This document shows positions 40,709-46,082 of a stretch of 64,000 nt of DNA, in pieces (the first letter of the stretch is position 1; the number at the start of each line of letters is the position of its first letter). The notes under the pieces were generated by a model that had not been told where the DNA came from, searched no databases, and worked only from the letters and a program-made list of their open reading frames with translations. The DNA is from a phage: the sequence record PZ154897.1, one strand, 5' to 3'. The translations under genes and the position numbers were made by a program.

Positions 40709-41125
40709 TTAAATGTAAATATTTTTGCCGTAATACTTGTACCAGTGTGGCTTCATTAAAATTTTTTCATCGAGTCGTTGTTGACTCAACCTAATAGCTG
40801 ATTTGCATGGATTATAATCATTTTTCCATTCTACTGGAATATCACTGATGTCAGGAACTTCAGTATCTTTTATACTAAACCCGCGTTTTAAGCATTCCGT
40901 TATAATGTCTGATTGACGCTTTCGCAAAAATTCTAACTTATCGTAAAAGAACGTAACATGACCAGAACCTAAAATAAACTCGGAAGATATTTTAAAATCT
41001 TTAACTCGTTTACCATTTGCCACGTGTTTACGAATTATACCAAAAACACGTGGCAATTCACGGTATTCTGCGATTAAATGCTGATCAGCAAGTTCAGATA
41101 CTAAAGTCAAATTAATACGAGTCAT
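40709..41125 (-). CDS. denV: endonuclease V (pyrimidine-dimer DNA glycosylase) DenV
   Basis: 138 aa [29 protein letters not shown]...WYKYYGK matches T4 endo V from memory. Confidence 0.95.
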
Positions 41126-41148
41126 TTTATCCCTCCAAGTAACTGTGA

Positions 41149-41181
41149 ATATACTATCACAGTTACTTGGAGAAAGTAAAC
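41149..41181 (-). promoter_or_regulatory. early sigma70-type promoter upstream of denV
   Basis: minus-strand GTTTAC (41176-41181) and TGATAGTATAT (41149-41159). Confidence 0.5.
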
Positions 41182-41185
41182 AACT

Positions 41186-41716
<531 letters not shown>

Positions 41717-42172
41717 TTAAAAGAGGCTGTTCATTATTCGGTAAAGTGAAGGACCCATCACATATTGCCACTGAGTACGAGGAATAAGAGCAAAAGCATC
41801 CATCTCTGGAATCATAACACCATCTTTATTTTCAAAATAAGACTCGCAATGGCAATTTCTAAACATCTCATGCTCTACTGGAATCGTATAATAAAATAAC
41901 TGTAAGTCTTTATTACTAGAATATTTAAATACACCTAGGTCTTCTAGAAGGTCTGGATTATAATTATTAAAACCAGTCTCTTCTAAGCATTCTCTTCGTG
42001 CTGCATCTAGCGCGCTTAAATCAGAATTTTCTACACGGCCCTTTGGGATATCCCAGCGATGTGCCATCATTCCAGGCTTACGAGAACCAGTAACCCGACC
42101 CATAAATAAATCTTTATCTTCTGTCATAAAGATAATACCAGCTGATAATGTTTTCATTTTAATTTCCTGCAT
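41717..42172 (-). CDS. nudE: Nudix hydrolase NudE
   Basis: 151 aa; Nudix box GRVENSDLSALDAARRECLEETGF. Confidence 0.85.
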   Translation of the reverse strand: MQEIKMKTLSAGIIFMTEDKDLFMGRVTGSRKPGMMAHRWDIPKGRVENSDLSALDAARRECLEETGFNNYNPDLLEDLGVFKYSSNKDLQLFYYTIPVEHEMFRNCHCESYFENKDGVMIPEMDAFALIPRTQWQYVMGPSLYRIMNSLF

Positions 42173-42642
42173 TCAGTGATAAAGTTATTTAAATTTTGAG
42201 TATATTTCTTTTCATCAAAAATCTTTTGTTGTCTGCGTAGCCGCCATGGCATTTCAATGAACGTGTACCATATCCCAGATAATATTGCTGCTGTAAAAAT
42301 ATTAACAAGTATGGTTAAAAGAATCCAATCTCCTATTCTGTCCATTGGATTTTTTATAAAAAAGTAAAATACGAATGATGTCACAGGAAGACTAATAATA
42401 TACCACAGAATCATAATTTTATCTGTGAACCAATCAGCGTTCGTTAATTTAGCGCGACCATTATGAATACATACGAATTTATCATCTGTTGCAGTAGATG
42501 GCTTAACTGGTTGATATCCCATTCTAAACTCCCTAATCAGCAAATTTTTCATATCTTCGGAACAGCCATTCCAGTCAACTCTATCAACTGGAATGCCATC
42601 ATCCCCATCATCTAAATCATACCAGCGAGTTTTTAAAATCAT
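42154..42642 (-). CDS. two-TM membrane protein, paralog 1 (C-terminal FITECRK tail)
   Basis: 162 aa; TM segments + basic WRLRRQQK + ...NFITECRKLK; overlaps neighbours. Confidence 0.5.
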   Translation of the reverse strand: MILKTRWYDLDDGDDGIPVDRVDWNGCSEDMKNLLIREFRMGYQPVKPSTATDDKFVCIHNGRAKLTNADWFTDKIMILWYIISLPVTSFVFYFFIKNPMDRIGDWILLTILVNIFTAAILSGIWYTFIEMPWRLRRQQKIFDEKKYTQNLNNFITECRKLK

Positions 42643-43004
42643 CTGATTTTCCTACAATCACTCACAAACTCTTTCATTGATTCATTTTCAATATAAGACA
42701 TGTAGCTATTATATTCTTTTAATTGTATTTTGTAATCCTTTTTTCTTTGCCAATTTATTTTAAAATTATCATAATGAAAATATAGAATGATACAAAAGAA
42801 TGAAAATAATGAAATAATTTTAGTATAGCGAAGTTCACTCCAAACTTCTATTATATTTACTGTGCCATCGATGTTTAAAATAAAACAGTCGTCAATTAAC
42901 AATCCAAAAAGACTACCCGCAAGAGCTGCAGCCAACGCCACAGCAAAAATTAAAAATGACTCAGGAAGCGAATATTTGACTTTATTTAGTTTTGGCTTTT
43001 GCAT
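42639..43004 (-). CDS. two-TM membrane protein, paralog 2 (C-terminal FVSDCRK tail)
   Basis: 121 aa; ATGA overlap with paralog 1. Confidence 0.5.
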   Translation of the reverse strand: MQKPKLNKVKYSLPESFLIFAVALAAALAGSLFGLLIDDCFILNIDGTVNIIEVWSELRYTKIISLFSFFCIILYFHYDNFKINWQRKKDYKIQLKEYNSYMSYIENESMKEFVSDCRKIR

Positions 43005-43399
43005 CGTGATTCCTTAACAAATTTCATAATTTCATCAAATTCATACGCAGCAAGTTTAAGCTGATATTCCTTTTTAATCTTTTTACACTGTGCTTTCCAA
43101 TCACGTACGCGTTTACGATAATGCCTTCCTTGATACCAGTATCCTACCCAATTTACAGGTACTAATAAAAATGGAACTATTAATGGAAGAATTAGCATTA
43201 ATACAAGTATTTCGCCAGAATCAATATCAGTCATAACATCTAAAACACCTCCAATAATCAATAGAATTACAAATGATATGAGTATAACAGGACCTATTAA
43301 TACATCAGTAGAAATTAGCTGACGCTTTGGTTCATACTTCACAGGTTTACTTGGAAGGTATAGTGATGGCTTTGACATATTCTCTACATTCCTTAACAA
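42986..43399 (-). CDS. two-TM membrane protein, paralog 3 (C-terminal FVKESRCK tail)
   Basis: 137 aa; start uncertain (possible internal Met MSKPSLY). Confidence 0.5.
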   Translation of the reverse strand: MLRNVENMSKPSLYLPSKPVKYEPKRQLISTDVLIGPVILISFVILLIIGGVLDVMTDIDSGEILVLMLILPLIVPFLLVPVNWVGYWYQGRHYRKRVRDWKAQCKKIKKEYQLKLAAYEFDEIMKFVKESRCKSQN

Positions 43400-43955
43400 A
43401 TTTTTCTAATAATAAATCGCTTTCAAAATTAGGATTTTCCACGAATTTATCAAAAAGATCATCAACAATAGTTAAGATATTCTTTTTACTAAGAATACGT
43501 TTATTTTCATGCTTTGTTTCAGAATCAACTATAAGAGTAAAGAAATATTTCTTTCCCTGAAATTTTACCGTAGTATCAATATAGAACAAATTTGACTTTT
43601 GTAAATTACGTTTAAACCATGCGTCACTTAAACTATAAACGCCAAGATAATCATAATCGTCATTTAAATAACAAACCGTCCATTCAGGAGAAATGAAATC
43701 AGTAAATTCAACATCAAAATCACACGTCAATGAATGAATTGATTCAATACTTTTAATGAGTATTCCAGGACGTATTAAAGACTTTTTACCTCTAGAAAAT
43801 CTTCCAGAAAGACTTTCATCAGTTTCATATGAAGACCCCCAATAGTAATTACGTCCTTCTGCCATACGTTTAAGAGCATTTAGTAATTGGTCTGGAACAT
43901 CAACCTGTCTTTGGAACTCTTCAAACATTGAATTGAAATCACTTTGCATTTTCAT
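43347..43955 (-). CDS. hypothetical protein sharing the C-terminal FVKECRE motif with the membrane paralogs
   Basis: 202-aa ORF. Confidence 0.5.
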   Translation of the reverse strand: MKMQSDFNSMFEEFQRQVDVPDQLLNALKRMAEGRNYYWGSSYETDESLSGRFSRGKKSLIRPGILIKSIESIHSLTCDFDVEFTDFISPEWTVCYLNDDYDYLGVYSLSDAWFKRNLQKSNLFYIDTTVKFQGKKYFFTLIVDSETKHENKRILSKKNILTIVDDLFDKFVENPNFESDLLLEKFVKECREYVKAITIPSK

Positions 43956-43975
43956 TCCTATTTACTCCAAGTAAT

Positions 43976-43991
43976 AGGGGCCGAAGCCCCT
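43976..43991 (-). other. AGGGGC-UUCG-GCCCCU tetraloop hairpin
   Basis: palindrome with cgaa loop in 41-bp intergenic gap. Confidence 0.5.
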
Positions 43992-43996
43992 TATCA

Positions 43997-44590
43997 TTAT
44001 TTCAGAGAATTAATGTATTCCTGAACATCGGCAGAGGTAGTTTCAACCCCGGAAATATTACCGTTAAAGGTTTCAACTCGAGCAAGAGTATCTTCAATAT
44101 CAACCTTAGTTAGCGCTGCGATTTCAACTACATCATCGGCAGTACTAATTCCAAGGGCATTTGCTGCACGAGTTTCACGGATATATTCCAATTTAACTGC
44201 AAGTTCTTGACGAGCATCATCTAATTCAACTACTTTCTTGGCGATTTCAATTCGCATTTCAGCATAACCATCAGCTTTAGTAGTCAACTGCTCAGCTGTT
44301 CGACGATATAGTAAACCGAGCTTAGCATGCATTGTTACATCTTGACCTTCGGAAAGAAGTTTGCGAATTTCACGCTCTTTTGATTCGGCTTGTCGATTCT
44401 TTTCGATAACAAGTTCACGAATACGTTTTTCTTCATTAATAGATTTAACAGAAGCAGTTTTTAGATCTTTAATTTTATCAAGCAGTTTTGCTGCTGCAGC
44501 AGTATACTGTTCTTCAACAGATAGATTTTTAGCCATAGCAGAACCAAGTTTAGTGCGAATAAACTCAACAATTTTCTTCAGTGTGTTCAT
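43997..44590 (-). CDS. coiled-coil protein resembling PspA/IM30 (phage-shock protein A family)
   Basis: 197 aa, mostly helical; local similarity to E. coli PspA recalled from memory (LDDARQEL vs VDDTLARM, IRETRA vs [15 protein letters not shown] vs ARFESFERRI). Confidence 0.4.
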
Positions 44591-44616
44591 AGTATTTCCT
44601 TAGATTGATACAATTA

Positions 44617-44647
44617 GATAATATCACGTTTTTAATAGATTGTAAAC
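44617..44647 (-). promoter_or_regulatory. early sigma70-type promoter upstream of the PspA-like gene
   Basis: minus-strand GTTTAC (44642-44647) and TGATATTATC (44617-44626). Confidence 0.4.
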
Positions 44648-44983
44648 TTATTCTTCGTCTAGCTCGTCGATAAAGACGTTGATGGACTCGACAATGGCAT
44701 CGTTAATAGCCAGTAAAATAAAATCGTCGTCAGTACCTTTATAAGATTCTGAAGCATTGATATATGCTTGATTGGCGAGTTCCCAAGCCTTTTTAAAATA
44801 AGGAGCTTCATCATCAGGACAAATATCCCGCACACCTTCAAAGATACGATTGGCATAATCTAACACCCATTGTACAGGTATGTTTTGAGAACGTTCATTA
44901 AACTCTTTAAAGTCCTTAGATTCAAAAAGCTCTTCAGGGTAATCATTTCTATTGCAAAAATCTTTGCTAAAGTTACGTTTCAT
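44648..44983 (-). CDS. hypothetical acidic protein
   Basis: 111-aa ORF. Confidence 0.45.
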   Translation of the reverse strand: MKRNFSKDFCNRNDYPEELFESKDFKEFNERSQNIPVQWVLDYANRIFEGVRDICPDDEAPYFKKAWELANQAYINASESYKGTDDDFILLAINDAIVESINVFIDELDEE

Positions 44984-45038
44984 AATATTTTCCTCAAATT
45001 ATAGGCTCATAATATCTCAATCATGAGCCTATGTAAAC

Positions 45039-45314
45039 TTATTTCATATTATTAAAATATTCTTCTGCGATTTCGTCGTTATCATGGTAAACTTTAGAAG
45101 ACAGTTTAACATAACCTTCAGCAGTGAACATGTTAATCACAACCTTTACAGTATACCACTGACCGTCTTCATTACCCATTACTGCGTAAGTTTCAAACAT
45201 CGGATGGTCAGGACCGATAACTTTAATATCATTCACTGTACGACCGAAATCTTCTGAAACACATTTCATAAAGAAGTTGAACAGTTCGCCGTAATTATCC
45301 ATTTCATTCTCCAA
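45039..45314 (-). CDS. hypothetical small protein
   Basis: 91-aa ORF downstream of promoter cassette; start may be Met5. Confidence 0.45.
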   Translation of the reverse strand: MENEMDNYGELFNFFMKCVSEDFGRTVNDIKVIGPDHPMFETYAVMGNEDGQWYTVKVVINMFTAEGYVKLSSKVYHDNDEIAEEYFNNMK

Positions 45315-45343
45315 GTTATTTTCTGTATCAGTAGTTGATAGTT

Positions 45344-45375
45344 GTATAGTACCATGGAAAAACGGGGATGTAAAC
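45344..45375 (-). promoter_or_regulatory. early sigma70-type promoter (repeat-cassette member)
   Basis: minus-strand GTTTAC (45370-45375) and TGGTACTATAC (45344-45354); upstream TTTTCACAAAACTGTTTAC. Confidence 0.5.
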
Positions 45376-45506
45376 AGTTTTGTGAAAAATTTTTTTAAAA
45401 AGTTTTAGGGAATTCTAGGGTGGGAAGGGGCAATTAAAGGATAGGATAATATATTATAAAGGGTAGAAACTAAATGATGCCTAGAGAGGTCCAGAAAGGT
45501 CTAGAT

Positions 45507-45539
45507 ACCAAAAAGCCCCAACCTTTCGGTCGGGGCTAA
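45507..45539. repeat. 33-bp direct repeat, copy 1 (terminator module)
   Basis: accaaaaagccccaacctttcggtcggggctaa identical to 46050..46082. Confidence 0.8.
45514..45537 (-). terminator. rho-independent terminator downstream of the IP-like gene
   Basis: agcccc(g/a)acc stem with tttc/GAAA loop; minus-strand UUUUUGG follows. Confidence 0.6.
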
Positions 45540-45544
45540 GAATG

Positions 45545-46003
45545 TTATTTGATTTGTTTAGCAGACCAAATGCGGTCTTTAATAATTTTTTGGATGTCTT
45601 CAACATACTCTAGGTCATGAGCATGTGGATTATCTTTAAAACTATAAGCTCGCGCAAGTTTCTGGCCTTCGGTCTTAATTACCAAAAGTTCTTTAAGAAT
45701 TGCTTCATACCTAGAAATAATTCCTTTAGCAATATTTTTTTCTTGTGCTGCTTTAGGGTCAGCCTTAGGAGCAGGTTTACCAGAAGGTTTTTCGAAAGCC
45801 GCACCAGTAGCAACCAGGCTTTTCCAGGCGGTGGTAACATAGTTACCCACAAAGCCTTCAGCTCTCATATCGTCGTAGAACTTGTACCGAGATTCGTCAG
45901 AAGCATCTTTATAAGAATATTTACCAGCTTTAATAGCAGCAGTTGCTACAGCGCGAACATCTGAAGCGGATGCTTCATTTAAAAATTGAGCATATGATTT
46001 CAT
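45545..46003 (-). CDS. internal-protein-like ORF with capsid-targeting-sequence-like leader (MKSYAQFLNEA)
   Basis: 152 aa; N-terminal decapeptide resembles the T4 IP leader MKTYQEFIAE; Ala/Lys-rich; late promoter upstream; flanked by 33-bp repeats. Confidence 0.5.
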   Translation of the reverse strand: MKSYAQFLNEASASDVRAVATAAIKAGKYSYKDASDESRYKFYDDMRAEGFVGNYVTTAWKSLVATGAAFEKPSGKPAPKADPKAAQEKNIAKGIISRYEAILKELLVIKTEGQKLARAYSFKDNPHAHDLEYVEDIQKIIKDRIWSAKQIK

Positions 46004-46050: not shown

Positions 46051-46082
46051 CCAAAAAGCCCCAACCTTTCGGTCGGGGCTAA
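46050..46082. repeat. 33-bp direct repeat, copy 2 (terminator module)
   Basis: identical to 45507..45539. Confidence 0.8.
46057..46080 (-). terminator. rho-independent terminator at the 3' end of the tRNA/stable-RNA transcription unit
   Basis: same hairpin as 45514..45537 followed by minus-strand U-run. Confidence 0.6.

Follow-up and report, generated by a model that had tools for sequence, protein, structure and literature searches.

A PspA/IM30-like protein of T4-like phages and a short C-terminal tail on the proteins encoded downstream of it

In Escherichia coli and Yersinia, the peripheral protein PspA is found beside two small inner-membrane proteins, PspB and PspC. In Bacillus subtilis, the PspA homolog LiaH is tethered to the membrane by LiaI, a small protein with two transmembrane (TM) segments. 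Short terminal peptides which direct variable proteins to a common partner are known from the MIM/MIT pairs of ESCRT-III and from the capsid-targeting sequence of the T4 internal proteins. The gene cluster described here, e.6 to e.2 of a T4-like phage, encodes a probable relative of PspA followed by one soluble and three small membrane proteins that end in the same short tail. It lies in a stretch of 64,000 nucleotides (nt) from sequence record PZ154897.1, referred to below as the window. The stretch is a Tequatrovirus (T4-like) genome; positions 41100-45400 are about 95% identical to many public T4-type phages, and the lysozyme open reading frame (ORF) at 41186-41680 is T4 gene e. The comparison with T4 e.2-e.8 that the initial annotation had proposed was made against the T4 reference annotation, and orthologs of nudE, e.2, e.3, e.4, e.5 and e.6 were assigned, all on the minus strand. 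The ORFs, overlaps, TM segments and C-terminal motifs described in that annotation were all present. The five genes considered here are, from e.6 onwards (lengths in amino acids, aa):

43997-44590, minus strand: e.6, 197 aa, probable PspA/IM30-like protein (ESCRT-III superfamily), ortholog of T4 e.6, phrog_1203
43347-43955, minus strand: e.5, 202 aa, soluble tail carrier directly after e.6, member of a fast-evolving family
42986-43378, minus strand: e.4, 130 aa from the T4 ATG start, two TM segments, predicted N-in/C-in with a basic cytoplasmic C-terminal region
42639-43004, minus strand: e.3, 121 aa, two TM segments, the second weaker
42154-42642, minus strand: e.2, 162 aa, a 75-aa N-terminal domain followed by two TM segments and the tail, intact form

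Relation of e.6 to PspA and IM30

With high probability e.6 belongs, as a divergent protein, to the PspA/IM30 branch of the ESCRT-III superfamily. The e.6 family gene is conserved in more than 1100 phage genomes from two families, and e.6 matches phrog_1203 at 1.6e-87. An exhaustive hmmsearch of 1.84 billion representatives with a shallow profile of 30 close e.6 homologs (A1) ended in a closed family with 45 members, each about 200 aa long. This search did not reach cellular PspA, but it supplied divergent members, and thereby the link between e.6 and PspA became visible. A deep profile was built from 38 diverse members of the family (A2). Five of the 38 match PF04012, the best at E = 8.9e-10, and two of them, P0065 (35.1 bits) and P0066 (39.0 bits), lie above its gathering score of 33.9, with residues 6-146 aligned to profile positions 2-143. 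Both match the e.6 profile over the full length (E = 1.3e-21 and 2.6e-20, respectively). P0066 is found in Ackermannviridae such as Klebsiella phage May, was already tagged PF04012 in its source collection and has a weak match to LiaH (E = 0.005); a locus search started from it led to phage May only. The A2 profile aligned with Synechocystis Vipp1 at E = 9.3e-5 (residues 1-146 versus 1-147) and with several further Vipp1/PspA chains at E = 3e-4 to 4e-3, and with E. coli PspA (4whe) at E = 1 only. In hhalign, A2 and a shallow enterobacterial PspA alignment (A3, representing E. coli PspA) gave P = 9.4e-5 at 59% probability over 167 colinear columns, and the invariant ARVETF of e.6 was placed on ARFESFE of PspA, in helix a4.

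A number of results weigh against this kinship. The e.6 sequence alone gave no PF04012 match even at E <= 1 in a Pfam search, and no sequence match in the PDB. With the A1 profile, Vipp1 stayed below the threshold (E = 1.8-4.4), yet the alignment was colinear (4-143 versus 4-145); with the PspA profile, only the a4 region was aligned. Every direct link between e.6 and PspA or Vipp1 is modest, at E or P of about 1e-4.

The predicted structure of e.6 (AlphaFold2, AF2) has a mean predicted local distance difference test score (pLDDT) of 75 overall and above 88 across the hairpin. The model is all-helical, with helices at residues 3-20 (a0), 25-80 (a1), 86-145 (a2/3), 165-175 (a4) and 186-196 (a5), and in this model the order of helices matches the a0-a5 layout of PspA and ESCRT-III proteins. 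The initial annotation had called the 197-aa protein all-helical, which the model bears out, and similar to PspA, for which the A2 profile, hhalign and the PF04012-matching members now provide a link at profile level. One could argue that e.6 is a generic coiled-coil hairpin without kinship to PspA and that the matches are compositional. We find this very improbable: every match runs colinearly from residue 1 across a0 to a3 and a4, and two members of the family exceed a curated Pfam threshold. Moreover, in a Foldseek search of 350,542 PDB chains, ranks 1-8 were all Vipp1 (E = 1.4e-3 to 2e-2), followed by archaeal CdvB2. In the viral Foldseek library, five e.6 orthologs and one unnamed protein were followed by a phage "PspA/IM30 family protein" in seventh place and a giant-virus "Snf7 family protein" in eighth. 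An independent analysis based on pdb70 came to the same conclusion for the SeF3a protein (PMC9409062).

A second alternative concerns function. If e.6 acted on the host Psp system as an antagonist or a decoy, binding for example PspF or PspB/PspC, it would not be a membrane effector itself. In E. coli, PspF is also bound through the hairpin region of PspA, which is the part conserved in e.6, and the homology is found mainly over residues 1-146. T4 shuts off host transcription early, which would leave the regulation of a sigma54 operon of little use to the phage. In addition, the amphipathic helix a0 of e.6 (hydrophobic moment 0.45, versus 0.42 in PspA) and the conservation of a4/a5 in the e.6 family fit a polymerising effector. 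The antagonist role is in our view improbable.

The PspA homology of the e.6 family is not new. It was proposed in 2022, when phrog_1203 in Kuttervirus SeF3a was inferred to be a PspA homolog by way of pdb70 and a role against abortive infection was suggested for it (PMC9409062), and the name "PspA/IM30 family protein" is already in use for proteins of Salmonella phage sal1 and Acinetobacter phage ME3, with one GenBank record bearing it. The public-record names for e.2-e.6 in T4-like phages are "hypothetical" or "membrane protein", and for e.6 also "host specificity protein"; in PHROGs, e.3 to e.6 are of unknown function and e.2 is "membrane protein" only. Many GenBank and UniRef orthologs of e.6 are labelled "host specificity protein" (ACLAME 1259) or "tail completion protein". 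Both labels are without support in the present analysis and look like propagated misannotations.

The C-terminal tail and its carriers

The tail has a consensus of nine residues, Phi-[E/N/D]-x-F-[I/V]-x-x-C-R, where Phi is hydrophobic. In the window it was found at the following positions:

43383-43409, minus strand: tail of e.5, LEKFVKECR
43001-43030, minus strand: tail of e.4, degenerate, IMKFVKESRC
42651-42677, minus strand: tail of e.3, MKEFVSDCR
42166-42192, minus strand: tail of e.2, LNNFITECR

The pattern F[IV]xxCR had no further occurrence in the six-frame translation of the window. The complete T4 genome, with 1408 open segments of at least 40 aa, has just three instances: e.5, e.3 and the remnant of e.2 carry one each, and all are C-terminal. 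The occurrence of the motif in this cluster is far beyond chance.

For comparison across phages, we collected 46 loci with e.6 neighbourhoods, in which the identity of e.6 ranges from 49 to 100%, and counted the strict motif within the last 22 residues of same-strand ORFs. The tail was present in 106 out of 1183 such ORFs. All 106 were downstream of e.6, while none of about 360 upstream ORFs carried it, and the gene immediately after e.6 was a carrier in 37 of the 46 loci. Position -3 of the tail is hydrophobic in 79 of 86 distinct DNA contexts, which would place positions -3, 0, +1 and +4 on one helix face; position -2 is taken by E, N or D, and there is little information in the flanks. With the tails removed, 110 carriers fell into 21 clusters not linked by BLAST, of which 8 are soluble and 13 have predicted TM segments.

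An explanation that has to be considered is that the tail is a by-product of nucleotide signals, namely the Shine-Dalgarno sequence and the start codon of the overlapping next gene. In the window, the codons of each tail do overlap the Shine-Dalgarno sequence of the following gene (AAGGAA for e.5 and e.4, AGGAAA for e.3 and e.2), and the tails of e.5 and e.4 share 16 identical nucleotides. The position of the Shine-Dalgarno sequence within the motif differs, however, being V-K-E in e.5 and e.4 and C-R-K in e.3 and e.2. In the 86 contexts all six Arg codons are used (49 CGN, 37 AGR), Cys is encoded by TGT and TGC equally often (43/43), and for Phe and Ile all synonymous codons occur. Such full codon diversity implies selection on the peptide and not on the nucleotides. 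The tail is also present in carriers that are separated from the following gene by 68 or 240 nt. Codon diversity and the non-overlapping instances together refute the nucleotide explanation, to which we give practically no credence; the initial annotation had named it among the findings that would refute its reading, and the motif is kept at the amino-acid level also where genes do not overlap. That the tail is a functional peptide motif is very likely in our judgement.

The exclusiveness of the tail was also examined in 2.9 million viral contigs (IMG/VR), which were scanned for back-translated FIxECRK. Among 39 matches, 14 were genuine C-terminal instances, and all 14 were on contigs carrying e.6. 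An unrelated protein family on three IMG/VR contigs of 10-45 kb (L070, L076 and L086) has an internal segment, IEDFI[SA]ECRKT.PDLKAAE, 44 residues from the C-terminus. It is the only recurring match of the scan outside T4-like phages and is probably a coincidence.

Variant tails follow e.6 homologs in more distant phages. In Ackermannviridae they are found on one-TM proteins (ESIIRRAR and DSIIKQAR in phage May, ESIVDRAR and LQIVDKAR in moki). After the e.6 homologs of RB43-like phages KFIHSCK was found, in Ceceduovirus SFINYCI and SFVEYCI, and in metagenomic lineages KYIHRCK, KFVISCY and SFVRDCF. As judged from these sequences, the pairing of e.6 and tail persists across two phage families with different neighbourhoods.

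The carriers in the window differ in kind. The initial annotation had assigned two TM helices to each of the three membrane proteins. This is clear for e.2 and e.4, which have two strong hydrophobic segments each, while in e.3 the second segment, around residues 62-77, is less long and less pronounced. Beyond TM2 all three proteins are strongly basic (15, 10 and 9 K+R), as had been stated for the juxtamembrane stretch, and the loops between the TM segments are acidic. By the positive-inside rule an N-in/C-in topology with cytoplasmic tails is therefore predicted. The three proteins had also been described as paralogs. In full-length hhalign comparisons they are colinear at 85-95% probability (e.4-e.3 P = 2e-6, e.3-e.2 P = 4e-8, e.4-e.2 P = 7e-6), and without the tails the relationship is weak (P = 1.2e-3, 0.022 and 0.045 in the same order), so their paralogy seems to rest largely on the tail and the common architecture. 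The upstream 202-aa protein, e.5, has the same motif, as had been noticed. In profile comparison its similarity to the membrane proteins is limited to about 18 residues of the tail, and in pairwise BLAST the e.5 tail against the membrane proteins was not significant on its own. Proteins in the e.5 position form one fast-evolving family (P = 2.6e-30 without the tail). The predicted structure of e.5, made from a shallow homolog set, has a pLDDT of 57.5 and was too poor for a fold search; the tail is predicted to be helical (residues 181-196) in this low-confidence model. Homologs of e.5 carry the precomputed Pfam accession PF26876.

The genes are tightly packed, and overlaps of 4-53 bp had been reported. 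The upper value depends on the start of e.4. From an upstream TTG the protein has 137 aa (to 43399) and overlaps e.5 by 53 nt; T4 annotates the ATG at 43378, with which the overlap is 32 nt. The remaining overlaps are 19 nt (e.4/e.3), 4 nt (e.3/e.2) and 19 nt (e.2/nudE), and the spacer between e.6 and e.5 is 41 nt. The reference T4 e.2 (102 aa; T4 67470-67960) differs from the intact 162-aa form by a deletion of 1 nt in an A-run and an insertion of 1 nt 67 nt later. As a result 21 codons are out of frame, a stop included, after which the original frame resumes with FITECRKLK. Either the T4 gene is a pseudogene or its frameshift is an artefact of sequencing.

Literature searches returned nothing on the tail, nor any paper for the Pfam accession of e.5. 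The tail, its exclusiveness to the cluster and its spread over many unrelated protein bodies appear to be undescribed. As a function of the tail, the gp21 prohead-protease site (I-x-E) was ruled out, with Glu at the required place in only 29 of the 86 contexts. A second cluster-specific C-terminal motif was observed in Gaprivervirus, Kanagawavirus and Karamvirus, where a family of proteins about 95 aa long, with W[VIL]SSSxMC at the C-terminus, is encoded in tandem copies downstream of e.6 (L005 6363-6944, L006 6210-6805, L008 5802-6328). It is absent from the window.

A possible common docking site

We lean towards reading e.6 to e.2 as an early, dispensable membrane-maintenance module of T4-like phages, in which the tails are a shared docking peptide, most plausibly for e.6. 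The idea of a membrane-remodelling or envelope-stress module had been put forward in the initial annotation; it is supported as far as computation can test it, and such a function would be expected from homology. The module would be expressed early and act on the inner membrane of the host from the cytoplasmic side. By homology, the N-terminal amphipathic helix of e.6 would attach it to the membrane, and its helical hairpin would mediate polymerisation. It may stabilise or reshape the inner membrane and so preserve the proton-motive force at a time when the host cannot induce its own Psp response. Soluble e.5 and the two-TM proteins e.4, e.3 and e.2 would expose the same nine-residue amphipathic helical tail in the cytoplasm as a short linear docking motif, with e.6 as the most plausible receptor, and the membrane proteins could serve as anchors or adaptors, as PspB/PspC do for PspA and LiaI for LiaH. 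We infer the polymerisation of e.6, its protection of the membrane and, above all, the interaction of tail and e.6. The last step, docking of the tail on e.6, is put forward tentatively. The main argument for it, an indirect one, is that the pairing across two phage families suggests that tail and e.6 work together. The near-invariant C-terminus of e.6 has the same spacing as the tail (EYINSLK, in helix a5), and it is a speculation that the tails mimic this helix.

The main rival reading accepts that e.6 is PspA-like and supposes that the tail docks on something else, either a host factor (such as a protease, a chaperone or membrane-associated machinery) or another phage protein, the adjacency to e.6 being a matter of an early gene block and local duplication. 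The invariant Cys-Arg could, as we see it, be a modification or recognition site, which would suit such a receptor. So would the distribution of the carriers, which reach about 6 kb downstream of e.6, many genes beyond it, with unrelated genes interspersed. In Miltonvirus 3M and in two metagenomic contexts (P0083, P0087), no recognisable tail was found near e.6. These last two observations speak against our main reading, and others do so too. Shared phylogeny confounds the joint occurrence of tail and e.6. The proteins e.2, e.3 and e.4 gave no significant Pfam or NCBIfam match and no detectable similarity to PspB, PspC or LiaI. Finally, the e.2-e.8 region is dispensable in the laboratory; "e.2-e.8" is listed among the large fragments lost from viable mutant genomes in a T4 genome-reduction study (PMC9825161). 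What stands against another receptor is the place of the tail: the gene right after e.6 so often bears it, variant tails follow e.6 homologs in Ackermannviridae too, in a different neighbourhood, and carriers are lacking upstream of e.6 in the 46 loci and elsewhere in T4. On this balance we consider another receptor possible though rather unlikely.

Returning to e.6 as the receptor, a wider proposal can be made for T4-like and ViI-like phages, which we regard as doubtful but worth stating. These phages may possess a PspA/ESCRT-III-type machine for which the tail is a portable address tag, plugging at least 21 unrelated protein bodies into the e.6 polymer, possibly by mimicking a5. The machine might keep the membrane energised against leakage through holin, damage from superinfection and abortive-infection effectors that target the membrane.

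T4 is the reference lytic phage, yet its genes e.2 to e.6 are still annotated as hypothetical or, apparently wrongly, as "host specificity protein". As a protein of the PspA/ESCRT-III superfamily, e.6 would give a concrete and testable role to a widely conserved phage gene, and the idea would be that the phage brings its own "phage shock protein" after silencing the host. A tail which is strictly conserved, exclusive to one cluster and present on many unrelated proteins bears the signature of a common docking site. Such a site would mark out which accessory genes are functionally linked and offer a handle for finding the partner. Should the module counter defence systems that depolarise the membrane, it would add a new class to the anti-defence mechanisms, with relevance for host range and phage therapy.

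Neighbouring features and comparison with known systems

Three further features of the region are as follows:

44618-44646, minus strand: sigma70/T4-early-type promoter-like site (TTTACA, 17 nt, TG-TATTAT), directly upstream of e.6
43974-43994, minus strand: hairpin GGGGCUUCGGCCCC with a UUCG tetraloop, within the e.6/e.5 spacer
41717-42172, minus strand: nudE

Similar promoter-like sites precede e.7 (45009-45037) and e.8 (45346-45374), and all three are consensus matches only. The GGGGCUUCGGCCCC hairpin is not followed by a U-run on the coding strand. The nudE gene may begin at its second ATG (MKTLS..., 146 aa; window 42154-42172), which overlaps the stop of e.2 as ATGA and lies 7 nt past AGGAAA; nothing comparable surrounds the annotated first ATG. 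The gene denV (40709-41125) is directly followed by e (41186-41680); this phage lacks the internal-protein genes ipII and ipIII that T4 has between the two. A 24-nt terminator hairpin, AGCCCCGACCGAAAGGTTGGGGCT, stands in two identical copies (46057-46080 and 45514-45537) on either side of an ORF of 152 aa at 45545-46003 (phrog_2280, function unknown), which occupies the place of T4 rnaC/rnaD, between e.8 and tRNA-Arg.

Of the known systems, MIM/MIT and the T4 capsid-targeting sequence offer a conceptual analogy with the tail only, as the sequences are unrelated. The capsid-targeting sequence is N-terminal and cleaved, in contrast to the C-terminal tail, and a MIT-domain protein is absent here. 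The phrog_1203 protein of Kuttervirus SeF3a belongs to the same PHROG family as e.6 and received the same PspA inference; T4 e.6, the downstream partner genes and the tail are not treated in the accessible portion of that report (PMC9409062). Vipp1/IM30 and the ESCRT-III proteins (Snf7, CdvB) share with the predicted e.6 structure the hairpin, the N-terminal amphipathic helix and the C-terminal helices, and they gave the best structural and profile matches to e.6. They differ in that identity is 14-17%, no Vps4-like ATPase is encoded near e.6, and the e.6 polymer is putative. In the LiaH-LiaI pair, LiaI is similar to e.4 and e.3 in size and topology, and P0066 brings the weak LiaH match. At the sequence level e.2-e.4 showed no detectable relationship with LiaI, and anchoring by e.2-e.4 is putative. 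In the arrangement of PspA with PspB/PspC, as seen in the E. coli operon, a peripheral protein of the PspA family likewise stands beside small inner-membrane proteins whose cytoplasmic parts possibly recruit it, and the e.6 profile is colinear with PspA and Vipp1 from residue 1 (E. coli PspA has 222 aa, e.6 197 aa). In contrast to that system, e.2, e.3 and e.4 have no similarity to PspB/PspC and the module has no PspF-type regulator; it consists of phage genes with early promoter-like sites and has several candidate partners, one of them soluble, which are united by one common C-terminal peptide.

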